From IMG/VR virus record IMGVR_UViG_3300045988_057866: DNA of 58,147 nucleotides. The stretch is one strand, 5' to 3'. The translations under genes and the position numbers were made by a program. Under the pieces are notes generated by a model, which saw nothing but the letters and a program-made list of their open reading frames with translations, did not search any database and had not been told where the DNA came from. The stretch is from a virus. Shown piece by piece: positions 26,001-57,932 of this stretch (positions within the stretch are counted from its first letter, which is position 1; each line of letters starts with the position of its first letter).

Positions 26001-27071
26001 ATGAGTAATTTTGATTTATCGAGCCTTGCGCTCGCTTCTGCGTTCCCTACGAACAAAATTCTGACAGACGACAAAGGGCTGCCGTCTGTCATGGTTTACA
26101 TTCCGAAATTTAAGATGTCAGACGTTATCGACGGAGCCGGGGACAGCACTCACCCGGCTTTTATTGTCAATGGAGTTGAAAAGGACGGCATTTACATTTC
26201 CAAGTACCAGAACGTCGCATACAACAACAGAGCCTACTCGCTGCCGGGTGAAGACCCGAAAGTAAGTATCACGGCAGACACCGCCCGTAAATACTGCGAG
26301 GACAAAGGTGCAGGCTGGCACATGATGTCCGCTATGGAATGGGGCGCACTTGCTTTATGGTGCAAGAAAAACGGCTGGATGCCTTGGGGTAATAACAACT
26401 ACGGCAAGGACACCAGAGAGACCATGAAGAAAGGCGTACCGGCCAAGTATGAGAGCGACGGCAGAACCGCTACTATCCTTACCGGCACTGGCCCGGTGGA
26501 GTATTCCCACAACAAGCAGCTCGACGGAATTTACGACCTCAACGGCAACGTGTGGGAGTGGAGCGACGGCATGAGACTTGTTTACGGTGAGCTGCAGGTG
26601 CTTGAGAACAACAACGCAGCAGACAGCTCCAACAGCAAGGCGGCCAGCTCCGCAGCATGGAAAGCAATCGACGGAACTACCGGCGCACTAATTGCCCCGG
26701 ACGGCAGCGGCACAACGACCAACTCTCTCAAACTGGATATGGTAAGCAGCAAGGGTAAATGGATTACCGGCACACTGTCCGACAAGAAAGATGAGGGACG
26801 AGGCTGCAGCTTCGCAAGCGTGACCGCAGATACCAATGTTTGCGACAAGGCGAAAGCGATTTTGTATGCGCTTGCTATGCTGCCGGATAGCACCACATTT
26901 GACTACGAGGGCGACTACTTCTGGTTTAACAACGGCAACGCCGAGCGTTTCCCGTTTCGTGGTGGCTTCTGGAGCTACGGTGCGCGTGCGGGTCTGTTCT
27001 GCACGTCGTTGAACAGCCCTCGTTCCAGTTCCTACTGGTACCTCGGCTTCCGCTCCGCTTTTTATGAATAA
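26001..27071 (+). CDS. DGR target protein 1: FGE-sulfatase / C-type-lectin-fold protein, probable receptor-binding tail fibre protein
   Basis: It carries GAGWHMMSAMEWGALALW and YDLNGNVWEWSDG motifs (FGE-like CLec fold). VR1 occupies the last 39 codons, and the gene is the last in the tail module. Confidence 0.85.
   Translation: MSNFDLSSLALASAFPTNKILTDDKGLPSVMVYIPKFKMSDVIDGAGDSTHPAFIVNGVEKDGIYISKYQNVAYNNRAYSLPGEDPKVSITADTARKYCEDKGAGWHMMSAMEWGALALWCKKNGWMPWGNNNYGKDTRETMKKGVPAKYESDGRTATILTGTGPVEYSHNKQLDGIYDLNGNVWEWSDGMRLVYGELQVLENNNAADSSNSKAASSAAWKAIDGTTGALIAPDGSGTTTNSLKLDMVSSKGKWITGTLSDKKDEGRGCSFASVTADTNVCDKAKAILYALAMLPDSTTFDYEGDYFWFNNGNAERFPFRGGFWSYGARAGLFCTSLNSPRSSSYWYLGFRSAFYE
26944..27059 (+). 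repeat. DGR variable repeat VR1
   Basis: It aligns without gaps to TR 27564-27679 (offset 620). There are 16 mismatches: 15 at TR adenines and 1 silent C-to-G at 27008. Confidence 0.9.
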
Positions 27072-27099
27072 CTGCAAACTGATTACTGATTAACTGACT

Positions 27100-27119
27100 G
27101 GGAGGACGGTAGTCCTCCC
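27100..27119 (+). promoter_or_regulatory. GC-rich hairpin downstream of VR1 (candidate DGR target-recognition hairpin; may also terminate the late operon)
   Basis: GGGAGGAC-GGTA-GTCCTCCC has a perfect 8-bp stem and a 4-nt loop. It starts 40 nt after VR1 ends and is followed by TATATTTTT. Confidence 0.6.
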
Positions 27120-27149: not shown

Positions 27150-27539
27150 ATGGCAGAAGCAGAAAAGCAGTACAGCAAGGAAACAACGAGTTTCCTGCTG
27201 AAAGAAAAGATTGCCGACATGATAAAGTACGGCAAAAAGGCTGTGGCGAATTTTCCTCGGCGAGAACGCCAGACGGCAGACGAGATACGCCGGACAATGC
27301 TCAACATGTACCGGCTATCAATCACTATCGAAAAGAAATATTACAAGAAAACCACTCTACAAGACCTCGATATTGAATTGGACGTGCTGCGACACCTTAT
27401 ACGGTTGGCGCAGGACAAAGACTACTACGACCAGAATATGGCACCGCCGTTATCATTCCATAAATACGAGGTTTGGAGCGGGCTTCTCAACGAGATAGGC
27501 CGTATCATTGGCGGATATATGAAATACGCAAAGCAATAA
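27150..27539 (+). CDS. avd: Accessory variability determinant (Avd-like four-helix-bundle protein)
   Basis: A 129-aa basic helical protein between the target gene and TR. The FPRRERQTADEIRR segment resembles the Avd / 23S-rRNA-IVS protein family. Confidence 0.8.
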   Translation: MAEAEKQYSKETTSFLLKEKIADMIKYGKKAVANFPRRERQTADEIRRTMLNMYRLSITIEKKYYKKTTLQDLDIELDVLRHLIRLAQDKDYYDQNMAPPLSFHKYEVWSGLLNEIGRIIGGYMKYAKQ

Positions 27540-27563: not shown

Positions 27564-27679
27564 AGCGTTTCCCGATTCGTGGTGGCAACTGGAACAACGG
27601 TGCGAATGCGGGTCTGTTCTACACGAACTTGAACAACCCTCGTTCCAATTCCAACTGGAACATCGGCTTCCGCTCCGCT
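27564..27679 (+). repeat. DGR template repeat (TR)
   Basis: A non-coding copy of VR1/VR2. In the VR reading frame the variable positions are AAC/AAT codons, and the frame opens with a TAG (27563-27565). I counted 25 adenines in the 116 bp by hand. Confidence 0.9.
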
Positions 27680-27893: not shown

Positions 27894-29213
27894 ATGACAA
27901 CGGAGATTTCACCAGAAAAGATACCGGGCATGGTGACGCTCGATGATATATACGATGAAATTTGCAGCTATGAGGGACTGTACCAATCACACCTTGAGGC
28001 CAGAAAGGGTAAGAGATACCGTGACGACGTTTTGGTGTTTACGGACAGGCTGGAAGAAAACCTTATTGAGCTGCAAAACGAACTTATTTGGCAGACCTAC
28101 AAAGTCGGCAAGTACAGGCAGTTTTATGTTCGGGAACCGAAGCTGCGCCTCGTAATGGCGTTGCAATACCGTGACAGGATTGTGCAGTGGGCGATTTACA
28201 GACAGCTTTACCCGTTCTACGACAAAATGTTTATTGAGGATTCCTACGCCTGCAGGAGGGGGAAAGGCTCCCATAAGGCGGCGGACAAACTTCAATACTG
28301 GCTGCGACAGGTCAGCAGGAAACCCGGAAAATGGTATTACTTGAAGCTGGATATAAGCAAGTATTTTTACAGGGTAGACCACCTTGTATTACTTGATATT
28401 TTGAGCCGGAGGATAAAAGACCCTCGGCTCTTTCGGCTTCTTAGGGAGATTATTAACAGCGAGGACACCCGTTTCGGGCTTCCGGCCGGTGTTAGCCCGG
28501 ACGAATGCCCAGAGGAGGACTGGCTGAGTGATGTAGGAATGCCGATTGGCAACCTCACATCACAACTATTTGCGAACATTTACCTCAATGAGTTAGACCA
28601 GCTCTGTAAACACGAGCTGCATTTACACTATTACATTCGCTATATGGACGATGTAATTATCCTTTTGCCAGACAAGAAAGAGCTGGCAAGAGTAAAGGCA
28701 ATCATTGAGGAATTCCTCAACGATTATTTGCACCTCGACCTCAATAACAAGACGGCTATACGCCCCTGCAGTCTCGGCATTGATTTCGTGGGCTATCACA
28801 TTTGGGCGACCCATAGGAAACTCAAGAAGCAGACGGCCCGCAAGATTATCCATGCGGTTGACTGGATGTGCGAACAGGGAGAGAAAGGCAATATGAGTAA
28901 AGAGGAGTTTGAGCGCAGAGTGGCCTCATACAGAGGCATTTTATTACACTGCGACAGCTATGGTCTGAGAAAGAAGCTGAACAGCATTTATTTTGACCAT
29001 GTTGTTGCAGAGGAGCCGGAGAAGCAGGAAGCCAAACAGAAGCCGGAGTGCGCCGAGAGAAAATGCTACACTTGCCAGAATTTCCGCAGAGAGTTTTTCT
29101 GCGGTTATGGAGCTTGCAGGTGCGACATTTACGGCTCTTTGGACGTAGACCAAAAGGAACGACACCCGGACAGAACAGCGGCGACTTGCCCGGACTATAC
29201 ACCAAACGAATAG
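27894..29213 (+). CDS. DGR reverse transcriptase with a Cys-rich C-terminal extension
   Basis: It has the DGR-type motif 4 IGNLTSQ (IGxxxSQ) and the catalytic YMDDVI box. The first in-frame ATG is 27894 (MTTEISPEK...). The ORF-track GTG at 27798 would add a G-rich leader overlapping the spacer RNA. Confidence 0.9.
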   Translation: MTTEISPEKIPGMVTLDDIYDEICSYEGLYQSHLEARKGKRYRDDVLVFTDRLEENLIELQNELIWQTYKVGKYRQFYVREPKLRLVMALQYRDRIVQWAIYRQLYPFYDKMFIEDSYACRRGKGSHKAADKLQYWLRQVSRKPGKWYYLKLDISKYFYRVDHLVLLDILSRRIKDPRLFRLLREIINSEDTRFGLPAGVSPDECPEEDWLSDVGMPIGNLTSQLFANIYLNELDQLCKHELHLHYYIRYMDDVIILLPDKKELARVKAIIEEFLNDYLHLDLNNKTAIRPCSLGIDFVGYHIWATHRKLKKQTARKIIHAVDWMCEQGEKGNMSKEEFERRVASYRGILLHCDSYGLRKKLNSIYFDHVVAEEPEKQEAKQKPECAERKCYTCQNFRREFFCGYGACRCDIYGSLDVDQKERHPDRTAATCPDYTPNE

Positions 29214-42899: not shown

Positions 42900-43886
42900 A
42901 TGGACAACAAAAACACATTACAGATTACGGCCCAGTACCCGGCAGAGAGATACAACCTGCTGGTGCCTATGCAGACCGTAGCGGAGATTGCGGAAATCCA
43001 CAAGCCGGTAATGAACGCCGTACAGATTTCCACGAATGAGGCTGACAAGGAAATTTACTTACAGGACAGAAGCAAGGCGAAAGCCGACGGCTGGGCTTTA
43101 ACCAAAAAGGGCCTAAACAAGCTCATGCGAGCCGCAGGTATTAAGATTTTGGGAACACGCCCGATTATCCCGTCCACCTGTCAGAAGTGTGCAGAGGTCA
43201 ACAAGAGCATTGGCAGGCCAGTCAACTGCGGAACCTGCGGTAACAAAGATGTGAAGTTTGAGGCAAGGATTTCCGTACCGCAGCTTACCGGGGAAAACAT
43301 CGAGATTGTGGCCCACAAGGAAATCATCGTTGACGATGTTTCGGTAGGCATGACGGAATTTCAGAAAAAGGAATTTTTGAAGTTCCGCTCGGAAATGTGC
43401 GAGACCAAAGCAATCAACAGAGCCTTGAGAGCGGCTATGCACATCAAAGGCACTTACAGCCTTGCAGAGCTGTCGAAACCGTTTGTTGTGGCGTACCTCG
43501 TACCGAACCTTGATAACGAGGCAGTCAAAGCGGAGGCAGTAAGGCACTTCTTCACATCGGCGCAGGAGCTTTACGGCGGACACAATACAGAGGCCAGACG
43601 TGCAATCTTCATTGAGGACGACGTAGAGGAGGGAATGGAGTACGAGACACCGGGAAAGCCGATTGAGCAGCCGGAGAGCGCAGCTTACAAGGAAGCCCCG
43701 GCAGAGCCACCAAGAGCCACACAGGAACGCCAGCAGGCGGCAGCAGAGGCGGCCCCGGACTTTGACCCGAATTTGTGCGTAGAGTGTGGAGTAAAGGTCA
43801 GCAACGGCGTTGTGAGATACAGCCAGCAGCAGTACGGAAGAACCCTCTGCATGGCTTGTCAGAGAAAACAGGGAGGTAATCAGTAA
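42900..43886 (+). CDS. Hypothetical DNA-binding protein with two zinc-ribbon motifs (possible recombination partner of SbcDC)
   Basis: It carries CQKCAEV...CGTCGNKD and CVECGVKV...CMACQRK motifs, and lies immediately upstream of the nuclease/ATPase gene. The function is only inferred from context. Confidence 0.4.
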   Translation: MDNKNTLQITAQYPAERYNLLVPMQTVAEIAEIHKPVMNAVQISTNEADKEIYLQDRSKAKADGWALTKKGLNKLMRAAGIKILGTRPIIPSTCQKCAEVNKSIGRPVNCGTCGNKDVKFEARISVPQLTGENIEIVAHKEIIVDDVSVGMTEFQKKEFLKFRSEMCETKAINRALRAAMHIKGTYSLAELSKPFVVAYLVPNLDNEAVKAEAVRHFFTSAQELYGGHNTEARRAIFIEDDVEEGMEYETPGKPIEQPESAAYKEAPAEPPRATQERQQAAAEAAPDFDPNLCVECGVKVSNGVVRYSQQQYGRTLCMACQRKQGGNQ

Positions 43887-46800
43887 TGGCAATCAGAATT
43901 TTACATACAGGCGATTTACATATCGGGAATTTCCCCGGCCCGGAGGAAAACGGGGAGAACGTGAGATTTAAGGACATCTGCAAGTGCCTTGACGCACTGG
44001 TGGCAGGCGCAAAGGAACAGAAGCCGGACATTGCGGTAATCGCAGGCGACATCTTTCATCAGGCCAGAGTTTGGAGCGACAGAGGATTGAAAGAGCAGCA
44101 GACGGCGGTACGCTTCCTGCGTGAGCTGGAAAGAATTTGCCCGGTAGTGGTTATGAGAGGAACCCCGAACCACGATAGCGAGGAGCAGTTCAAGACGCTT
44201 GACAGCACCTTTTACGGCGACGACAGCGTACACATCATAACGGAGCCAGACGTAGGCACATACCACAGCTACGACGGCAAGGCGGTACAGATTGCGTGCC
44301 TTCCGGGATTTGACAGAGGCTTTTACAGAGCAAAGCACCCCGGCCTCTCCAAAGAGGAGGAAAACGAGGTATTCACACAGTCAATCGCAGATTTGATTGT
44401 GGGGCTCAAGGCACAGTGCGACGCAGGTAGCCCGACGGTACTGGTATCACACTACACCATTACCGGGTGCAATATGGAGAGCGGGCAGACGGCATTCTTT
44501 AGCCAGTTTGAGCCGGTGGTTTACCCGGACACGCTGCAGGCGGCGGATTTTGACCTCGTTTGCTTCGGACACATTCACAGACCGCAGCAGCTCGACGGCT
44601 GCAAGAACACATTCTACTGCGGAGCGATTTCAGCCCTCAACTTCAACGACGAGGGACAGGAGAGAGGCTACTGGCTGCATGATGTAGAGGACGACGGAAC
44701 AGTACACTCCACATTCCAGCAGCTTCCGACAAGGCAGTATAAAACAATCCGCCTCAAGGACGAGGATGTAGCGGAGATTATCAATGCAGACAGGGCGGAG
44801 GATAAGTTCCCGTTCACGGTGACGGACGTAAAGGGAGACATCGTGAGAGTGCTTTACGACTGCACGGACGAGCATAACAAGGCATTTAACCATACGGTGT
44901 ATGAGGCAGCGCTCTACAACGTGGGCGGAGCCTTTTGGGTACAGGAGATTACACCGCAGAAAATCAGTATCACGGTGGATAAGAAGAGCATGGACGCAGA
45001 CGGAACCCCGGAAAGCAACCTTGCGGAATACATTACAGAGAAAGAGCTTACGCCGGAACGCCTCGGAGAGATTATCGAGCTGGCAAGACCGATTATAGCA
45101 GAGGCAACGGAGAAAGCCACGACAGAGAGACATACAGGGCTGTTCGTCCCGGTTGAGATTGAGGTCAAGAACTACCGCAACTACCGTGAGGAGACATTCT
45201 CATTCGAGGATATTCGCTTTTGCACCATTAACGGCAGCAACGGCGTAGGAAAGAGCAGTTTGTTCATGGACGCAATGGCGGACGCTCTTTTTGAGGAGAC
45301 CAGAGAGGGCGAACTCACCGGCTGGATTTGCAACGACCCGGACGCTCGAAGCGGCGCAATCAAATTCACATTTAAGCTGGGCGAGAGCCTTTACAGAGTA
45401 ACCAGAACCCGTCAGAAGTCCGGCAAGGCGACACTGAATATTTCAGAATTTGTTGAGGGTGAATGGGTAGACCGCTCTAAGGAGAAGTTCAAAGACACCC
45501 AGCAGGAAATCATCAACATCATTGGCATGGATAGCCTCACGCTGAAAGCCTGCGCCCTTATCATGCAAGACCAGTACGGCCTCTTTTTACAGGCGGACAA
45601 GGAAGCCCGCATGAATATCCTCGGAAATATCCTCGGCCTCGGCATTTACGCCGGAATGGAGGAACTGGCAGCGGACAAGGCGACAGAGACTAACAGACAG
45701 ATAAGACAGTTGCAGGATAAGACGGACGTTATCTTGTCGGGCCTGCCGGACAGAGCGGAGCTTGAGGCACAGATTGCAGCGGAGGAGGAAACCAAAGCGA
45801 CCTACGAGCAGGCGGCAGCGGTAAAGACAACGGAGATTGACGGTCTCAAGGTGAAGCTCAACACGCAGTTGGAGGCAGCGAGCCGTGTTATCAAGCTCAA
45901 CGGTAAGATTGCCACACTCGGAACGCAGAAAGCCACCAAAGAGGCAGCAAAGACCTCACAGGTAGGCATTGTGACATCGGCAAACACTATTCTTGCCAAA
46001 GAGGAGGAAATCACGGCGGGCGTGGCAGCCTACAACGGATTGTTGGAAAAGGAAAAAGAGCTGATTAAGGGCAAGGCTACATACGACAACCTTGAGCAGA
46101 GAAAGAAGCAGCTCGAATCCGCCATTGACCTTGCGGAGAAATCTGCAAAGGAACTGGCGCAGAAAAAAGCAGCGATTACGCTCGTGAAGATTGGGCCACT
46201 TGAGGCAGCCATTTCCCGTGCTGCGGAGCTGGAAGAAAAGCACCAGCAGCACGAAAGCACTGCCGGAAAGATTGCGGAACTGGAAAAGGGATTGCCGGAG
46301 TACACGGAGCAGAGACAGGCGGTACTCGACGCAGAGGCGGAGCTGGAACGACTGGAAGCGGACTATGAGAAAGCGAAAGAGAAGCTGTCATACCGCATCA
46401 CGACCCTCAGAGGCAAAGTTGAGCTTCTGGACAACAGCGGTTGCCCGGACGTAGAAAAAGCAAGCTGTAAGTTCCTTGCGGACGCACTGGAAGCCAAGAA
46501 AGCATTGCCGGAGGCAGAGGCGGAACTCACTTCACTTGAGACAGAGTACGCAGCAAACCGTCAGAGCCTTTCAGATACGCTCAGACAGGCGGAAACCGTG
46601 TTCAGCGATAAAATGCACCTCCCGGAGGAAATCGAGGCTCTTAGAGGCGATTTGAGAGTGCTTGAGGCAGCGGAGAAAGAGTACAGCAGCCTTGAGGCAC
46701 AGAGAAACGAGCTGAAACTCATGCAGGAACGCTCGGAGGAGCTGGCAAAGGCGCAGGCCAGCGCAGAGGAGACGGTCACAAAGGGAAAAGCCGAACTGGA

Positions 46801-47749
46801 AAAGGTGACAGCGGAGCTTGAGGCGGTAGAGGCAGCCAACAGAGAGTACGAGAAGTTACAGCAGGACATTTTGACAGCCAGAACATGGCTGGATAAGGAG
46901 AAACAGCTCCCAGTAGCGAGACAGCAAAAAGAGGCGGCAAGCCTGCGTGTTCTGGAATTGAGTGGAGAGATTGAAGAACTCGAAAAGGAACTCGAAGAAA
47001 CCCGCACAGAGCTTGAGGAGGAGCAGAGCAAGACCGTAGGAACGGCAGAGCTGCAGGCACAGGTAGCGGCAGCAGAGGCGGAAATCAAAGCCATGCAGGA
47101 CGCAGCGCAGGCGGCCACGCTGAAACTCGGAGGCTTGAAGAAACAGGCGGAGGAGCTGGCAGAGAAGTTACAGCAGGCGGCAGAGCTGCAGAACCGTGTA
47201 AACGTACTCGGAGGCAAGGCCGCCGGATATGAGGAGCTGAAAAAGGCGTTTTCGCAGGATGGTATTCCTCACAACATTATCCGCAGCATTATCCCGGTAT
47301 TTGAGGCCGCAGCAACGAATATCCTCGGACAGATGTCACAGGGTCGCATGAGCGTTGAGTTCGTGACCGAAAAGGTTCTGAAATCCAACAGCAAGAAAGA
47401 GGTAACGACCCTCGACATCATCATCAACGACGTAGACACCGGGCGACTTCCTTACATGAGCAGAAGCGGTGGCGAGAGGGTAAAAGCAGCACTGTCTGTT
47501 ATCCTTGCCCTTTCAGAGATTAAGAGCAGCAAGGCAGGCGTACAGCTTGGGTTCCTATTCATTGACGAGCCACCGTTCCTCGACGCTCCGGGCGTACAGG
47601 CATATTGCGACGCACTGGAAGCAATTCAGAACAGATACAGTAACCTCAAGGTTATGGCAATCACCCATGACCCGGCCATGAAGTCGAGATTTCCGCAGAG
47701 TGTTGATGTGGTAAAGACGGCAGAGGGCAGTAAGGTAATTTATGAATAG
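43886..47749 (+). CDS. Fused SbcD-like (Mre11) nuclease and SbcC-like (Rad50) ATPase
   Basis: N-terminal calcineurin-like phosphoesterase motifs: HTGDLH, IAGDIFH, GTPNHD, GHIHRP. These are followed by Walker A GSNGVGKSS, about 600 aa of coiled coil, the signature SRSGGERV and Walker B FLFIDEP. Confidence 0.85.
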   Translation: MAIRILHTGDLHIGNFPGPEENGENVRFKDICKCLDALVAGAKEQKPDIAVIAGDIFHQARVWSDRGLKEQQTAVRFLRELERICPVVVMRGTPNHDSEEQFKTLDSTFYGDDSVHIITEPDVGTYHSYDGKAVQIACLPGFDRGFYRAKHPGLSKEEENEVFTQSIADLIVGLKAQCDAGSPTVLVSHYTITGCNMESGQTAFFSQFEPVVYPDTLQAADFDLVCFGHIHRPQQLDGCKNTFYCGAISALNFNDEGQERGYWLHDVEDDGTVHSTFQQLPTRQYKTIRLKDEDVAEIINADRAEDKFPFTVTDVKGDIVRVLYDCTDEHNKAFNHTVYEAALYNVGGAFWVQEITPQKISITVDKKSMDADGTPESNLAEYITEKELTPERLGEIIELARPIIAEATEKATTERHTGLFVPVEIEVKNYRNYREETFSFEDIRFCTINGSNGVGKSSLFMDAMADALFEETREGELTGWICNDPDARSGAIKFTFKLGESLYRVTRTRQKSGKATLNISEFVEGEWVDRSKEKFKDTQQEIINIIGMDSLTLKACALIMQDQYGLFLQADKEARMNILGNILGLGIYAGMEELAADKATETNRQIRQLQDKTDVILSGLPDRAELEAQIAAEEETKATYEQAAAVKTTEIDGLKVKLNTQLEAASRVIKLNGKIATLGTQKATKEAAKTSQVGIVTSANTILAKEEEITAGVAAYNGLLEKEKELIKGKATYDNLEQRKKQLESAIDLAEKSAKELAQKKAAITLVKIGPLEAAISRAAELEEKHQQHESTAGKIAELEKGLPEYTEQRQAVLDAEAELERLEADYEKAKEKLSYRITTLRGKVELLDNSGCPDVEKASCKFLADALEAKKALPEAEAELTSLETEYAANRQSLSDTLRQAETVFSDKMHLPEEIEALRGDLRVLEAAEKEYSSLEAQRNELKLMQERSEELAKAQASAEETVTKGKAELEKVTAELEAVEAANREYEKLQQDILTARTWLDKEKQLPVARQQKEAASLRVLELSGEIEELEKELEETRTELEEEQSKTVGTAELQAQVAAAEAEIKAMQDAAQAATLKLGGLKKQAEELAEKLQQAAELQNRVNVLGGKAAGYEELKKAFSQDGIPHNIIRSIIPVFEAAATNILGQMSQGRMSVEFVTEKVLKSNSKKEVTTLDIIINDVDTGRLPYMSRSGGERVKAALSVILALSEIKSSKAGVQLGFLFIDEPPFLDAPGVQAYCDALEAIQNRYSNLKVMAITHDPAMKSRFPQSVDVVKTAEGSKVIYE

Positions 47750-50657: not shown

Positions 50658-51794
50658 ATGGCAGAAATGAAAATTAGACACACGGAAACTGCAGGAGATT
50701 ACAGCTCCGAGACAGTATTCGAGGGAAAAGACCTTGAATTTATCCACGAGGATTTGCTCAAGACTTTGTTCGGAGCAAAGAATGCAGCACCGGCCCCGGA
50801 GGGAAAGAAAGAGGTCAAGCTCGCAGCGGTAGAGACTAAGCAGCCGGGAGTAGAGGGAAACGTCGTAGCAATTTACGACAACGCCGGTATTCCCTCATTC
50901 ATGTATAAATTTACCCGTGTAAGTAATAAGGAGCTGTTCGGCGGCGGCGATAAGCCTCACCCGGCATTTGTTATCGGCGGAGAGGTTTACGACGAGATTT
51001 ATATTTCAGTCTACCAGAACTGCGAAATTAACGGGAAGCCGTACAGCTTGCCATATCAGAAGCCGTGGACGAACCTTACCAATGATGAAGCGTCAGAGGC
51101 TTGCTTCAACAAGGGTGAGGGCTGGCACCTTATGACCGCAGCAGAGTGGGGACTGATTGCAAATATCAGCCTCAAGAACGGAACTCTCCCTCACGGGAAT
51201 ACCAACAACGGCCAGTACCACGCAGACGCAAGCGAAAAAGGTGTGAAGTACGACGGAGGCGACGGCAGAACCCTTACCGGCAGCGGCCCAGCCACATGGA
51301 CGCACAATCACACCCCGGAGGGCGTACACGATTTATGCGGAAACGTATGGGAAATGCTTAGAGGACTGCGTATCAAAGACGGCGTACTGTATGCAGCAAA
51401 GGACAACGACGCAGCACTCAACATCGACCTCACACAGGAGGGAGACGACTGGCACAGAATTAAGGACAATTCCGGCAATGTCGTAAAGGTATCGGTAGAC
51501 GGCAGTATCAAGATTACCACATACCCGTCCATTGAGCAGGACTACACCGGGGACTGCTGGGAGGACGTAGACATCGACTGCGAGAGCGAACAGCTCAAGG
51601 AACTTGCATTGTTCGCAGGGGAGCCAAAAGCATACCTCTATATCGACAGCACCAGCGGAGAATACTTCCCGATTCGTGGTGGCTACTGGCACTCCGGTGC
51701 GGATGCGGGTCTGTTCTGCACGCACTTGAACAACCCTCGTTCCAATTCCAGCTGGAACATCGGCTTCCGCTCCGCTTATTTCAAGAAACACTGA
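50658..51794 (+). CDS. DGR target protein 2: FGE-sulfatase / C-type-lectin-fold paralogue carrying VR2
   Basis: ATG at 50658 follows CAGGAGGAA. GEGWHLMTAAEWGLIANI and HDLCGNVWEMLRG motifs are present, and it is homologous to target 1 along most of its length. VR2 lies in the last roughly 43 codons. Confidence 0.85.
   Translation: MAEMKIRHTETAGDYSSETVFEGKDLEFIHEDLLKTLFGAKNAAPAPEGKKEVKLAAVETKQPGVEGNVVAIYDNAGIPSFMYKFTRVSNKELFGGGDKPHPAFVIGGEVYDEIYISVYQNCEINGKPYSLPYQKPWTNLTNDEASEACFNKGEGWHLMTAAEWGLIANISLKNGTLPHGNTNNGQYHADASEKGVKYDGGDGRTLTGSGPATWTHNHTPEGVHDLCGNVWEMLRGLRIKDGVLYAAKDNDAALNIDLTQEGDDWHRIKDNSGNVVKVSVDGSIKITTYPSIEQDYTGDCWEDVDIDCESEQLKELALFAGEPKAYLYIDSTSGEYFPIRGGYWHSGADAGLFCTHLNNPRSNSSWNIGFRSAYFKKH
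51666..51776 (+). repeat. DGR variable repeat VR2 (remote, about 24.1 kb from TR)
   Basis: It aligns without gaps to TR 27569-27679 (offset 24097). There are 8 mismatches, all at TR adenines (27587, 27593, 27596, 27597, 27605, 27621, 27626, 27654). Confidence 0.9.
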
Positions 51795-51818
51795 TAACTG
51801 CTTACTGAGCAACTGACA

Positions 51819-51838
51819 GGGGCGGCGATAGTCGCCCC
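51819..51838 (+). promoter_or_regulatory. GC-rich hairpin downstream of VR2 (counterpart of 27100-27119)
   Basis: GGGGCGGC-GATA-GTCGCCCC has an 8-bp stem with one G-T pair and a 4-nt loop. It starts 42 nt after VR2 ends. Confidence 0.55.
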
Positions 51839-51860
51839 ATACAGAAAGGAGGCGGAGGAA

Positions 51861-52181
51861 ACGGCCAAGCGAGGAGATATTTACTACATCAGAGGGACAG
51901 AGACGACAGGCAGCGAGCAGGGCGGAAACAGACCGGCAGTAATCGTGAGCAACAACACCGGGAACCACCATGCGCCGGTAGTAGAAGTCGTTTACCTTAC
52001 AACAAAGAGAAAGACCACCATTCCGACGCATGTTTATATCAATTCAGCCCGGAGGCCGTCAATAGCCCTCTGCGAGCAGATTGTAACGGTATGCAAAAGC
52101 AGGCTCAAGGAACATATCGGGAGCGTAAGCGTGGCGGAAATGAGAAAAATTGACCGGGCTTTGCAGACAAGTCTCGGAATA
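51861..52181 (+). other. MazF/PemK-like toxin module with no canonical start codon and no stop codon
   Basis: (ACG)AKRGDIYYIRGTETTGSEQGGNRPAVIVSNNTGN...PTHVYI...ALCEQIVTVCKSRL...MRKIDRALQTSLGI is a full-length PemK/MazF-like sequence. ACG sits where ATG is expected, 8 nt after AAAGGAGGCGGAGG. The frame runs on into the next gene. Confidence 0.6.
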
Positions 52182-52751
52182 CAGGAAACAGGAGGAGAGA
52201 ATATGCAGGTAACAATCAAAACCCCATTCGGGGAAATGAGCTTTAATATGACGCAGGACAAGGCCAATGACCTTATGAAGAAAGCACTGGACTACGCAAC
52301 CGGGCAGGAGGAGAAAGAGGAAACACCCGCCAGACCTGCCAGCGTACCGCAGGAGCCGCCGAAAACTATCAAGCCAAAGGATAAGCCACGCAGCAGAGTT
52401 GAGAGCCTTTTCGGGGATTTCAGAGGCGCAGGCGTAGCACAGGAAGAAAAGGAAGAACCGGAGGAGCCGGAGGAGTACAGAGGGTTTTTGCTTATTAAGT
52501 GCCAGCATTGTGGAAAGGTCAAAGGATTTTGCAGCAAAACCCCGATGTCAAAGTACACCTGTGAGAGCTGTGGAAAGGTTACGCCGCTGCATGGCCTTAA
52601 AATGGCCCATTTACATTGCAAATGCGGGAGTTACTGGAAGTACAAGACCAACATCACCGACGAAACATTTGACTACAACTGTTTGAACTGCGGAAACCCG
52701 GTAAGCATGCAGTTGAACAACCGCAGAAACACATACGTCACAATCGAGTAA
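51945..52751 (+). CDS. ORF as a gene caller would report it: truncated MazF-like region fused in frame to a zinc-ribbon protein (internal RBS and ATG at 52203)
   Basis: The first canonical start is GTG at 51945, inside the MazF-like domain. GGAGG at 52191-52195 plus ATG at 52203 suggest an independent start for the C-terminal part, which has CQHCGK...CESCGK...CKCG...CLNCGN motifs. Confidence 0.5.
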   Translation: MSNNTGNHHAPVVEVVYLTTKRKTTIPTHVYINSARRPSIALCEQIVTVCKSRLKEHIGSVSVAEMRKIDRALQTSLGIQETGGENMQVTIKTPFGEMSFNMTQDKANDLMKKALDYATGQEEKEETPARPASVPQEPPKTIKPKDKPRSRVESLFGDFRGAGVAQEEKEEPEEPEEYRGFLLIKCQHCGKVKGFCSKTPMSKYTCESCGKVTPLHGLKMAHLHCKCGSYWKYKTNITDETFDYNCLNCGNPVSMQLNNRRNTYVTIE

Positions 52752-57278: not shown

Positions 57279-57932
57279 GTGAAGAAGAAAACAGAGATAC
57301 AGGCACTCATTGAAGCCGCTGTAATGGCGGCAACGGAAGCCTGCATGAAAGGCATTGACGAGAAACTGCAGGCAGCGGTAAACCTCGGAGTGACAATCGG
57401 GGCCGCAGCCGGAGCAGAGGTCGGAGCAGCAGCGGCAGTAAAGGCCGTGGAGAGAGAAAGACAGAAATTCAAGAAGCAGCAGTACGATTATAAGTACCAC
57501 AACACGAAACTGCTGTTGAGAAATTACCGCCGCCTAAATGAGTATTACAAAAACGCCGTATTTAGTACCGACGGCGCAGAGGAGGCGGATGAGAATTTTG
57601 AGGAAATCATGCAGAACATGGGCCGCCCGGCAGACGAGGAGATATTCGTAGAGAGTATTCAGAAGAACTACATCGCCACCAGAATTATTATGACCCATGT
57701 AAATAAAATGCTGGAATGTTACAAGATTATGTGCGAGCGTTCCAGCAGGGCCGACGACGCAAGACATTGGCGAGTGTTGGAGAACCTTTATATCGCAGAG
57801 AACTACACCACAGCGGAGGAAATTGCGAAGCAGGAGAAAATCGACAGGAGAACCGTGTACCGTGACGTGGATATTTGCGCAGCGGATATGACAGCTCTTT
57901 TGTTTGGAATTGGCGGTATAGACCGCTTTTGA
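57279..57932 (+). CDS. ArpU / sigma-70 region-4-like late transcriptional regulator
   Basis: The C-terminal HTH YTTAEEIAKQEKIDRRTVYRDVDICAADMTALLFGI and the LLLRNYRRLNEYY segment support the call. It is the last gene before the packaging/late genes on the circular map. Confidence 0.5.
   Translation: MKKKTEIQALIEAAVMAATEACMKGIDEKLQAAVNLGVTIGAAAGAEVGAAAAVKAVERERQKFKKQQYDYKYHNTKLLLRNYRRLNEYYKNAVFSTDGAEEADENFEEIMQNMGRPADEEIFVESIQKNYIATRIIMTHVNKMLECYKIMCERSSRADDARHWRVLENLYIAENYTTAEEIAKQEKIDRRTVYRDVDICAADMTALLFGIGGIDRF

Follow-up and report, generated by a model that had tools for sequence, protein, structure and literature searches.

A distal variable repeat in the early region of a Clostridia gut myophage as the probable second target of a single DGR

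Target 2 and the DGR cassette

The window, that is, the whole 58,147-nucleotide stretch of viral DNA analysed here (IMG/VR record IMGVR_UViG_3300045988_057866), carries one template repeat (TR) and two target genes, each containing a variable repeat (VR1 and VR2, respectively) (Table 1). Target 1 is preceded by baseplate genes assigned to phrog_6 and phrog_521, and its encoding within the tail/baseplate module, a feature of Mtd-like receptor-binding proteins, is not shared by target 2. The translation of the DGR reverse transcriptase (RT) contains IGNLTSQ, which we take to be the [I/L/V]GxxxSQ signature of DGR-RTs, and its C-terminal extension is Cys-rich. The initial annotation had assigned target 2 to positions 50658-51838. 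The start of this interval was retained, whereas the ORF was found to close at 51794 and position 51838 to be the last base of a downstream hairpin.

Table 1. Coordinates of the two DGR targets, the DGR cassette and neighbouring features in the window
Feature	Coordinates	Strand	Remarks
Target-1 gene, 356 aa	26001..27071	+	Closes baseplate/tail module; VR1 = 26949-27059
VR1 cis elements	27071..27119	+	ACTG heptads 27071-27096; hairpin GGGAGGAC-GGTA-GTCCTCCC 27100-27119
Avd accessory protein	27150..27539	+	Pfam bAvd, E=2.6e-24
TR, template repeat	27564..27679	+	VR2-matching part 27569-27679; 24 adenines
DGR reverse transcriptase, 471 aa	27798..29213	+	Pfam RVT_1, E=7.7e-24
Target-2 gene, 378 aa	50658..51794	+	ORF with upstream AGGAGG ribosome-binding site; VR2 at its C-terminus
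VR2, variable repeat	51666..51776	+	Codons 337-373 of target 2
GC-rich 3' boundary GGCTTCCGCTCCGCT, IMH-like	51762..51776	+	Identical in TR, VR1 and VR2
Four ACTG motifs, ~7-nt spacing	51790..51815	+	Between VR2 and hairpin; overlap stop codon
VR2 hairpin GGGGCGGC-GATA-GTCGCCCC	51819..51838	+	8-bp GC-rich stem, 4-nt GRNA-type loop; DNA folding
PemK/MazF-domain ORF, downstream neighbour	51861..52751	+	Pfam PF02452, E=6e-27; phrog_1936; not part of DGR

Target 2 is laid out as an N-terminal, family-specific segment of approximately 70 aa plus linker, followed by a C-type-lectin/FGE-type domain that ends in VR2. The N-terminal segment is small and conserved, and the linker is variable and rich in A, P, E and K. 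The protein matched Pfam PF03781 (above the cut-off) and phrog_2889, and a profile search found the Thermus aquaticus variable protein TaqVP (5VF4) at E=1.3e-55, with residues 70-374 covered by the match. An AlphaFold2 model built from 42 sequences had a pLDDT of only 64, and both the VR and the N-terminus were poorly modelled, with pLDDT values of 28-45 across residues 321-366 (the VR region). When this model was searched with Foldseek, 5VF4 was matched at E=4e-22 (TM 0.66, 30% identity), and the remaining matches were generic tail-fibre lectins. On profile and model comparison, target 2 is classed as a C-type-lectin-fold DGR variable protein of the FGE-sulfatase subtype, TaqVP/TvpA-like, with its VR at the C-terminal end. 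TaqVP, an FGE-type C-type-lectin DGR variable protein with a C-terminal VR like that of target 2, is the closest solved structure. It is a cellular DGR target, whereas the phage protein adds an N-terminal segment of approximately 45 aa and a linker. Because the model was poor over the VR, solvent exposure of the variable residues of VR2 was assumed by carrying it over from TaqVP and Mtd.

Target 1 and target 2 shared 37% identity over 337 aa (E=2e-61) and had unlike N-termini, in agreement with the earlier view of two homologous proteins differing at their N-termini, and target 2 is an old paralogue of the tail-tip target. When its N-terminal 70 aa were compared with 1.84 billion representatives, 7 matches were obtained, mostly short fragments, and no other domain was recognisable. 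A profile of the same segment found no match among all ORFs of the window, and the model was of low confidence there. With no homologue detected outside the family, the N-terminal 70 aa gave no clue to a docking partner.

Information flow from TR to VR2

In an ungapped re-alignment of VR2 with the matching part of TR, 103 of 111 positions were identical. All eight mismatches (TR 27587, 27593, 27596, 27597, 27605, 27621, 27626 and 27654) fell on a TR adenine and none on another base, where A makes up 24 of the 111 TR bases (hypergeometric P=1.7e-6), as had been stated in the initial annotation. Just 8 of the 24 TR adenines were substituted in the window's own VR2. VR1 differed from TR by 15 A-mismatches and one non-A mismatch, at positions other than those of VR2, and at one site the peptide read NWNN in TR, YWHS in VR2 and FWSY in VR1, exactly as had been quoted. 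The distance from TR to VR2 was measured at 24,097 bp, compared to the approximately 24.1 kb given earlier. In the frame of the target-2 ORF, codon positions 1-2 hold all 24 TR adenines, 10 AAY codons among them, and with the adenines confined to these positions no stop codons arise. A third TR-like copy was not found on either strand of the window.

Natural variation of target 2 was examined in 21 variants with at least 93% identity. Columns with four or more residue types were found only at positions 339, 343, 345, 346, 349, 354, 356, 358, 359, 363, 365, 367 and 368, and these 13 hypervariable columns coincide with adenine-containing TR codons. Mean entropy was 0.91 bits within the VR and 0.07 bits elsewhere. 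One 90%-identity cluster of target 2 contained 2002 distinct sequences. In the scaffold (codons 1-336) dN/dS was 0.05-0.08, compared to 10-17 nonsynonymous and 1-2 synonymous differences in the VR, and the scaffold outside the VR is held constant by strong purifying selection. The check on VR2 hypervariability proposed in the initial annotation was thereby answered in its favour: near-identical genomes varied exactly at the A-containing codons, and did so independently of VR1.

Base changes outside the adenines were also copied. In contig 2854381245_000003, two non-A changes private to its TR, C>G at the equivalent of 27572 and C>T at the equivalent of 27667, recurred in both VR1 and VR2, the latter change falling in the GGCTTCCGCTCCGCT boundary. 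Similarly, the T at 27643 is specific to the window and common to its TR, VR1 and VR2, and relatives have C in all three. Among four divergent genomes, each VR followed its own TR with 0-1 non-A mismatches, with the exception of VR2 of Dulem virus 37, which had 4. Moreover, VR2 mismatches fell only, or almost only, on TR adenines in four close and four distant relatives. Non-A changes that are private to one TR and mirrored in both VRs constitute, at the level of sequence, direct comparative evidence that one TR feeds both. Hypervariable A-codons, a constrained scaffold and private TR changes present in both VRs were found together, and therefore one TR/RT appears actively to serve both targets, as first proposed from the TR/VR pairs.

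The two VRs are also followed by similar cis elements. The ACTG heptad pattern matched four times in the whole window, compared to 0.08 matches expected, and only 3' of VR1 and VR2. It was kept in relatives and in phage Saumur. The hairpins of VR1 and VR2 both satisfy the published rule for DGR targets, namely a GC stem of 7-10 bp with a 4-nt GRNA loop (PMC3240598). Among relatives, stem sequences varied and complementarity was kept, with GATA, GGTA, GAAA, GGAA or GAGA as loops. The 42 nt from the end of VR2 to the hairpin is slightly above the range of 4-34 bp given in PMC3240598. The heptad array between VR and hairpin is a candidate additional recognition element.

VR2 is very probably a genuine and currently active second target of the phage's single DGR. 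The Avd-RT complex would reverse-transcribe TR RNA and misincorporate opposite adenines, and the resulting cDNA would replace either VR1 or VR2. Each VR would be recognised by the same package, in which TR homology up to GGCTTCCGCTCCGCT is followed first by four ACTG heptads and then by a GC hairpin that has a GRNA loop. At VR2, 13-14 codons (10 AAY together with ATT, TAC, ACG and ATC) would be recoded, for which the codon table allows approximately 10^14 protein variants, and the recoded part would form the C-terminal binding surface of the TaqVP-like C-type-lectin protein. The biochemical homing steps are proposed by analogy with BPP-1; comparison established the flow of information from TR to VR2, its hypervariability and cis elements, the fold of the protein and the accessory status of the gene.

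Two other explanations for a TR-like repeat at this distance were weighed against active homing. If VR2 were a relic, a duplicated target that has lost homing and retained its likeness to TR, the few substitutions in the window's copy (8 of 24 adenines) and the four non-A mismatches in Dulem virus 37 would be accounted for. However, a relic would not be expected to receive private non-A changes from TR or to be hypervariable at A-codons among variants at least 93% identical, and the intact cis elements and the strong purifying selection on the scaffold contradict it as well. This reading was rejected as highly improbable. Assemblers are known to be confused by hypervariable repeats, and the second copy might then have been a chimera or a duplication artefact, as the initial annotation had cautioned. 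However, at least five independent IMG/VR contigs show the same gene order, as do 58.1-kb assemblies from ENA and JGI and the complete genome deposited for Dulem virus 37, and outside the VR the two genes share just 37% identity. The recurrent order and the low identity exclude an assembly artefact, to which we attach a negligible probability. All refuting conditions set in the initial annotation were checked, and none was borne out.

Genomic setting of target 2 in the window and in relatives

Upstream of target 2 are a replication initiator, a DnaC/IstB-like ATPase and small ORFs, and downstream are the PemK/MazF-domain ORF and a MazG-like gene. ORF and domain comparisons thus upheld the placement of the gene in a replication/accessory, non-structural region with a MazF-like neighbour. 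Genes from 40.9 kb round to the lysis genes are all co-oriented, and orientation and spacing suggest that target 2 is co-transcribed with the early genes, which the initial annotation had stated outright. A promoter and terminator scan of 47-58 kb gave counts no higher than those in shuffled sequence.

The PemK/MazF-domain ORF has ACG at 51861 in place of the ATG of relatives, with no canonical start ahead of the domain, and an in-frame fusion joins the domain to a Cys-rich C-terminal part. A separate antitoxin gene was not identified for this ORF, and it was not classed as a MazF/PemK toxin-antitoxin module. A functional link between MazF and target 2 was considered and rejected: the two are conserved as neighbours only within the close clade, and not in Dulem 37, Lagaffe, Saumur or Blautia prophages, and many relatives have MazF but lack target 2.

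The gene is kept at this position in relatives at 56-68% identity and is missing from many syntenic relatives. Elsewhere, orthologues occupy either the interval from the lysis genes to the integrase or a different early region. In every relative examined they were found in non-structural regions and never in the structural module. Target 2 has a type I R-M methyltransferase and Lar nearby in Dulem 37, and DarA_C, YopX and SSB nearby in a Blautia prophage, whereas in Lagaffe and Saumur the distal target heads the early region. Because the orthologues always lie in non-structural hot spots and are often missing from relatives, target 2 is an accessory gene. In phage databases, the target-2 locus matched only Dulem virus 37 and one fragment by blastn, and for 25 kb of the window megablast gave no match in the phage collection.

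Known systems and the possible role of target 2

The system shares with the DGR of Bordetella phage BPP-1 (mtd-avd-TR-brt; PMC3240598) the adenine-specific transfer from TR to VR, the Avd and RT proteins, a C-type-lectin-fold gene with the VR at its 3' end, a GC-rich boundary on the 3' side and the 8-bp GC hairpin with its GRNA loop. BPP-1 has one adjacent target, whereas the window has two, of which the second is 24 kb distant and lies outside the tail module. From the end of the VR to the hairpin there are 40-42 nt here, with ACTG heptads among them, compared to the 4-34 bp given for BPP-1 and elements related to it. The variable protein belongs to the FGE/TaqVP subtype and is not orthologous to Mtd.

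Closer counterparts are found in the Clostridia myophages Lagaffe (a Faecalibacterium phage, PMC11792537) and Saumur (a Clostridium phage), which likewise combine Avd, TR and RT with two FGE-type targets, one in the tail module and the other in the early or recombination/replication region. In both phages the mismatches between TR and VR2 were verified here to be A-only. Both VRs of Lagaffe vary among cognate genomes (PMC11792537). The putative non-adjacent DGR target of Saumur was found in the present analysis; its record carries no DGR-target annotation for this gene, and the paper naming Saumur makes no mention of a DGR. These second targets align with that of the window at only 32-39% identity over residues ~65-376, with the N-terminal segment unaligned. 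In the second target of Lagaffe, gp40, the VR is internal and is followed by a C-terminal extension of 115 aa, and the flanking repeats are ATCTG/CTCTG, unlike those of the window.

The initial annotation had rated the novelty of a distal target too highly, as distal second VRs in gut prophages were already published (PMC5758913, PMC11792537, PMC12629997). Prophages with one target beside the RT cassette and the other elsewhere in the same prophage, less than 50 kb away, were described by Wu et al. 2018 (PMC5758913) and in a Nature 2025 survey (PMC12629997), and in gut prophages distal VRs occur near counter-defence genes (PMC12629997). Non-adjacent phage DGR targets are thus known (Wu 2018; Lagaffe 2024; Nature 2025), and target 2 is a further example. 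Both PMC5758913 and PMC12629997 are at survey level, whereas a single family is followed here in its clade, its cis elements, its presence/absence polymorphism and its evolution in concert with TR. The two-target DGRs with tentaclins (PMC10743442) also come from gut phages and combine one TR with two C-lec targets, the second likewise without an assigned role. Their two targets are of unrelated topology and both lie in the cassette, whereas those described here are paralogues and the second is remote.

Target 2 may be a diversified ligand-binding module tethered via the conserved N-terminal segment and the flexible linker, and its role was considered under two readings. A second adhesin or receptor-binding protein is tentatively placed slightly ahead of an intracellular, non-virion binder. 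As a virion-borne protein, which we regard as plausible at somewhat under even odds, target 2 would dock on the tail or capsid by its N-terminal segment, and host or substrate binding would be broadened or switched independently of target 1. Target 2 and its paralogue in the tail module have the same fold and are similar in size, and a small conserved N-terminal segment that leads through the variable linker into a binding domain is typical of a tethered binding module. A Peduoviridae DGR 'antireceptor' likewise has an N-terminal extension of approximately 75 aa ahead of the same domain. Late read-through is possible because the genes from 40.9 kb to lysis are co-oriented, and the phage DGR targets published so far are for the most part tail proteins (PMC10743442, PMC12629997). 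Against a place in the virion, however, are the lack of a structural-module location in any relative examined, the dispensability of the gene in many syntenic relatives, and an N-terminus unlike target 1, the other window ORFs and known structural proteins. The Lagaffe and Saumur papers contain no virion proteomics.

The same genomic context favours a non-virion, early-expressed diversified binder, a possibility to which we give less credence. Such a protein would have its site of action within the infected cell or lysogen, where it might be directed at variable host targets of defence or takeover, or it would leave the cell at lysis as a soluble lectin. The context is consistently non-structural (DnaC-like and MazF/MazG-like genes in the window, and the settings in Dulem 37, the Blautia prophage, Lagaffe and Saumur), counter-defence genes lie near distal VRs in the Nature 2025 survey (PMC12629997), and the presence/absence polymorphism is of the kind that accessory or moron genes typically show. 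In bacteria, CLec DGR targets that are intracellular are known (PMC10907252). However, accessory hot spots may merely mark where insertions are tolerated, target 2 has no signal peptide, partner domain or homology indicating an intracellular function, and no demonstrated phage precedent is known. The narrower proposal that target 2 is an early-expressed, DGR-diversified intracellular binder serving as a counter-defence or host-takeover factor, and not a virion protein, is unlikely on present evidence. It was put forward on circumstantial grounds, namely that the gene is dispensable in relatives, that the accessory hot spots in which it lies are always non-structural, and that its neighbours there are often anti-restriction, methylase or toxin-like genes. 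If true, hypermutation would fit a phage factor to variable host proteins, as a phage-side 'adaptive' anti-immunity module.

Saumur has as its host E. clostridioformis YL32, of the OMM12 mouse-gut model community, and Lagaffe has F. prausnitzii A2-165. Both phages are inducible in culture, and therefore the role of the distal target is directly testable.

These findings present a very clean natural case of one TR/RT maintaining two separated targets, with comparative proof of flow into both. They also delineate a sizeable clade of Clostridia gut myophages, comprising Dulem 37, Lagaffe and Saumur as well as the window clade, in which the tail-tip lectin has a paralogue that is maintained away from the structural genes.

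TR, its two copies and the elements beside them

When the template repeat (TR) of the diversity-generating retroelement (DGR) was re-aligned to both strands of the window, two copies were found, VR1 in the tail-module target 1 and VR2 in the remote target 2, and no third copy was present on either strand of the whole window. The initial annotation had reported eight mismatches between TR and VR2, all at TR adenines, and this was reproduced: 8 of 111 positions differed, 8/8 of them at adenines (24 adenines in the TR segment; chance probability 1.7e-6). VR1 showed 15 adenine mismatches and one non-adenine mismatch to TR, and its adenine set differed from that of VR2. In the target-2 frame TR reads FPIRGGNWNNGANAGLFYTNLNNPRSNSNWNIGFRSA, with 24/24 adenines at codon positions 1 or 2 and 10 AAY codons. 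The peptide comparisons quoted earlier were right, and the two targets were 37% identical over 337 residues and differed at their N-termini, as described.

Coordinates of the DGR components, target 2 and their neighbors
Feature	Position	Description
VR1	26949-27059	copy of TR in target 1
ACTG motifs at VR1	27071-27096	four, ~7-nt spacing, between VR end and hairpin
Hairpin after VR1	27100-27119	8-bp GC-rich stem, loop GGTA
TR	27569-27679	template repeat
Avd	between targets 1 and 2	bAvd, E=2.6e-24
Reverse transcriptase (RT)	between targets 1 and 2	RVT_1, E=7.7e-24; contains IGNLTSQ
Target-2 ORF	50658-51794	ATG to stop, 378 aa, AGGAGG upstream
VR2	51666-51776	copy of TR in target 2
ACTG motifs at VR2	51790-51815	four, ~7-nt spacing, between VR end and hairpin
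Hairpin after VR2	51819-51838	8-bp GC-rich stem, loop GATA
PemK/MazF-domain ORF	51798-52751 (+)	toxin domain and Cys-rich part
Upstream of target 2		replication initiator, DnaC/IstB-like ATPase, four small ORFs
Downstream of target 2		PemK/MazF-domain ORF, MazG-like pyrophosphohydrolase, SSB, RecU

The GC-rich 15-mer GGCTTCCGCTCCGCT forms the 3' end of TR, VR1 and VR2 alike, and beyond it the flanks of VR1 and VR2 resemble each other and are both unlike that of TR. A triple-ACTG pattern was matched four times in the 58-kb window, compared to 0.08 expected, and only at VR1 and VR2. The motifs were kept across the clade (six further loci, including Clostridium phage Saumur), whereas phage Lagaffe has ATCTG/CTCTG repeats in their place. 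This array is possibly an extra target-recognition element; no description of it was found in the target-recognition paper (PMC3240598). Both hairpins conform to the rule given there for BPP-1 and other phage DGRs, a 7-10 bp GC stem with a 4-nt GRNA loop at a variable distance from the VR. The relatives' VR1 and VR2 have the same layout downstream, with stems that vary in sequence and retain complementarity, and with GATA, GGTA, GAAA, GGAA or GAGA loops. The segment 27100-27130 comprises the VR1 hairpin and, after it, TATATTTTTG, and might also serve as an intrinsic terminator where the tail operon ends; the VR2 hairpin has no such T-run. At its C-terminus the RT has a Cys-rich extension (CAERKCYTCQNF...CGYGACRC; window 29000-29213, residues ~403-471), alignable only in RTs approximately 70% identical or more; DGR RTs of greater divergence stop near residue 400.

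Variation at VR2 among related genomes

Five IMG/VR contigs carried a target-2 gene 93-97% identical to that of the window, with TR and VR1 on the same contig in three of the five. Differences between the window and these genes clustered in the 111-bp VR at TR-adenine columns, and each VR2 differed from its own TR by 9-16 adenine and 0-1 non-adenine mismatches. Contig 2854381245_000003 gave the clearest evidence: two private non-adenine TR changes were both found in its own VR1 and VR2. Position 27643 is T in the window TR and C in all relatives, and in each genome VR1 and VR2 matched the local TR. The pattern also held in four genomes at greater divergence, one of them the complete Dulem virus 37: their TRs differed from that of the window at many non-adenine positions, and VR1 and VR2 tracked them, the sole exception being Dulem VR2 with four non-adenine mismatches. 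Change in concert with TR is expected at both targets if TR is transferred to each VR, and it bears out the proposal that one TR and RT serve two targets.

Protein searches returned more than 1000 target-2 homologues, one 90% cluster alone holding 2002 distinct sequences. Among 21 variants of at least 93% identity, only 13 columns had at least four residue types, all from adenine-containing TR codons, and mean entropy was 0.91 bits in the VR versus 0.07 elsewhere. VR2 is thus hypervariable across near-identical variants. Outside the VR, dN/dS was 0.05-0.08, and inside it there were 10-17 nonsynonymous versus 1-2 synonymous differences, indicating a functional target-2 gene whose scaffold is conserved and whose tip is diversified. 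As judged from these sequence comparisons, the diversification mechanism at VR2 appears secure.

The 21-kb contig IMGVR_UViG_2833214634_000003 has TR and the first 63 aa of RT approximately 3 kb downstream of VR2 (nine mismatches, adenine-only), followed by genes normally 3' of the lysis genes. The stretch that begins at SSB, takes in the structural genes and ends at Avd is absent. The contig represents either a misassembly or what is left of a prophage after a deletion.

Genomic setting of target 2

The window comprises an entire phage genome of approximately 58.1 kb, circularly permuted: its last gene (57279-57932) is joined to the first (17-640) in relatives. An identical target-2 protein was found in human metagenome assemblies, on contigs of 58.1 kb (ENA ERZ28659272, human sample SAMEA2737721; JGI 3300029135), and no near match to the window was found in the phage collection searched. 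Two tandem ParB_N-like paralogues, ~41% identical (17-640 and 640-1209), immediately precede the terminase genes. A single 1287-aa ORF (43886-47749) with a calcineurin-like phosphoesterase domain and an SMC/AAA_23 ATPase looks like a fused SbcD-SbcC-type nuclease.

The baseplate/tail module ends with target 1, with phrog_6 and phrog_521 upstream. The neighbors of target 2 confirmed its location among early/replication genes beside a MazF-like module, outside the structural genes. Target 2 is separated from its neighbors by 25 and 66 nt and its hairpin is not followed by a terminator-like T-run, so that co-transcription with the neighbors is plausible; promoter and terminator scans around target 2 were uninformative. 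In the PemK/MazF-domain ORF, the toxin domain is not preceded by an ATG, GTG or TTG. At the site of the relatives' ATG the ORF has ACG (51861), which stands behind AAGGAGG; one further relative also has ACG. Gene callers cut the ORF back to a GTG at 51945. The toxin domain continues stop-free into a Cys-rich C-terminal part, within which an ATG with an RBS of its own occurs at 52170, and the fusion is kept in relatives.

Target 2 occupied this position in relatives whose target 2 was only 56-68% identical, and was elsewhere or absent in others. In another set, including Dulem virus 37, the orthologue lay between lysis genes and integrase, and in a Blautia sp. MSJ-19 prophage beside DarA_C-, YopX- and SSB-encoding genes. 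Many relatives with DnaC-to-MazF-to-MazG synteny, found via the DnaC-like protein, had no target 2 there, and contig 3300045988_033670 had the DGR RT and no target 2 at the site. In the relatives examined, target 2 was never in the structural module. This presence or absence at varied non-structural sites indicates an accessory gene in accessory-gene hot spots.

Role of target 2 and comparison with known DGRs

Targets 1 and 2 both matched Pfam FGE-sulfatase and phrog_2889, and a target-2 orthologue profile matched the Thermus aquaticus DGR variable protein TaqVP (5VF4) over residues 70-374 (E=1.3e-55). The AlphaFold2 model (pLDDT 64, pTM 0.71) matched 5VF4 with a Foldseek E=4e-22 and TM 0.66. 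The N-terminal ~40 residues, modeled with low confidence as a beta-hairpin and helix, are conserved in orthologues and lead into a variable linker rich in A/P/E/K; searches outside the family and among the other window ORFs detected no relatives of this segment. The fold search also returned BFVD H7BVC4, a 146-aa viral protein that matches part of target 2 at 92% identity, so unnamed pieces of the lineage's distal target already exist in public protein databases.

Two features of target 2 speak for a second virion-borne adhesin, to which we assign a probability of roughly 0.45: it is a paralogue of the tail-tip target, and it is built as an anchor, a linker and a binding domain. A non-virion role is somewhat less probable; it is favored by the invariably non-structural location of target 2, by its dispensability and by the lack of a recognizable attachment domain.

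A catalogue of non-adjacent DGR targets within prophages was compiled by Wu et al. (PMC5758913), and two-target cassettes with unrelated proteins have been described (PMC10743442). Faecalibacterium phage Lagaffe is reported in a 2024 study (PMC11792537) to have a second VR, and both of its VRs to vary specifically at adenines when cognate genomes are compared; the present analysis confirmed that the second VR lies in gp40, where the recombination/replication genes begin. Four gut prophage species are reported to have a distal second VR close to counter-defence genes (Nature 2025; PMC12629997). In Saumur (ON453901.1; Enterocloster clostridioformis prophage), a second target not annotated as such (44213-45193, minus strand) was found in the early region, adjoining the replication initiator and a PAPS-reductase-like gene, with ACTG repeats, a hairpin with a GAGA loop and mismatches to the Saumur TR that are confined to adenines. 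The prophage can be induced in the OMM12 strain YL32, which makes Saumur experimentally tractable. Given these published systems, the window does not represent a new kind of system, and its second target is a well-supported further case of already known distal DGR targets.
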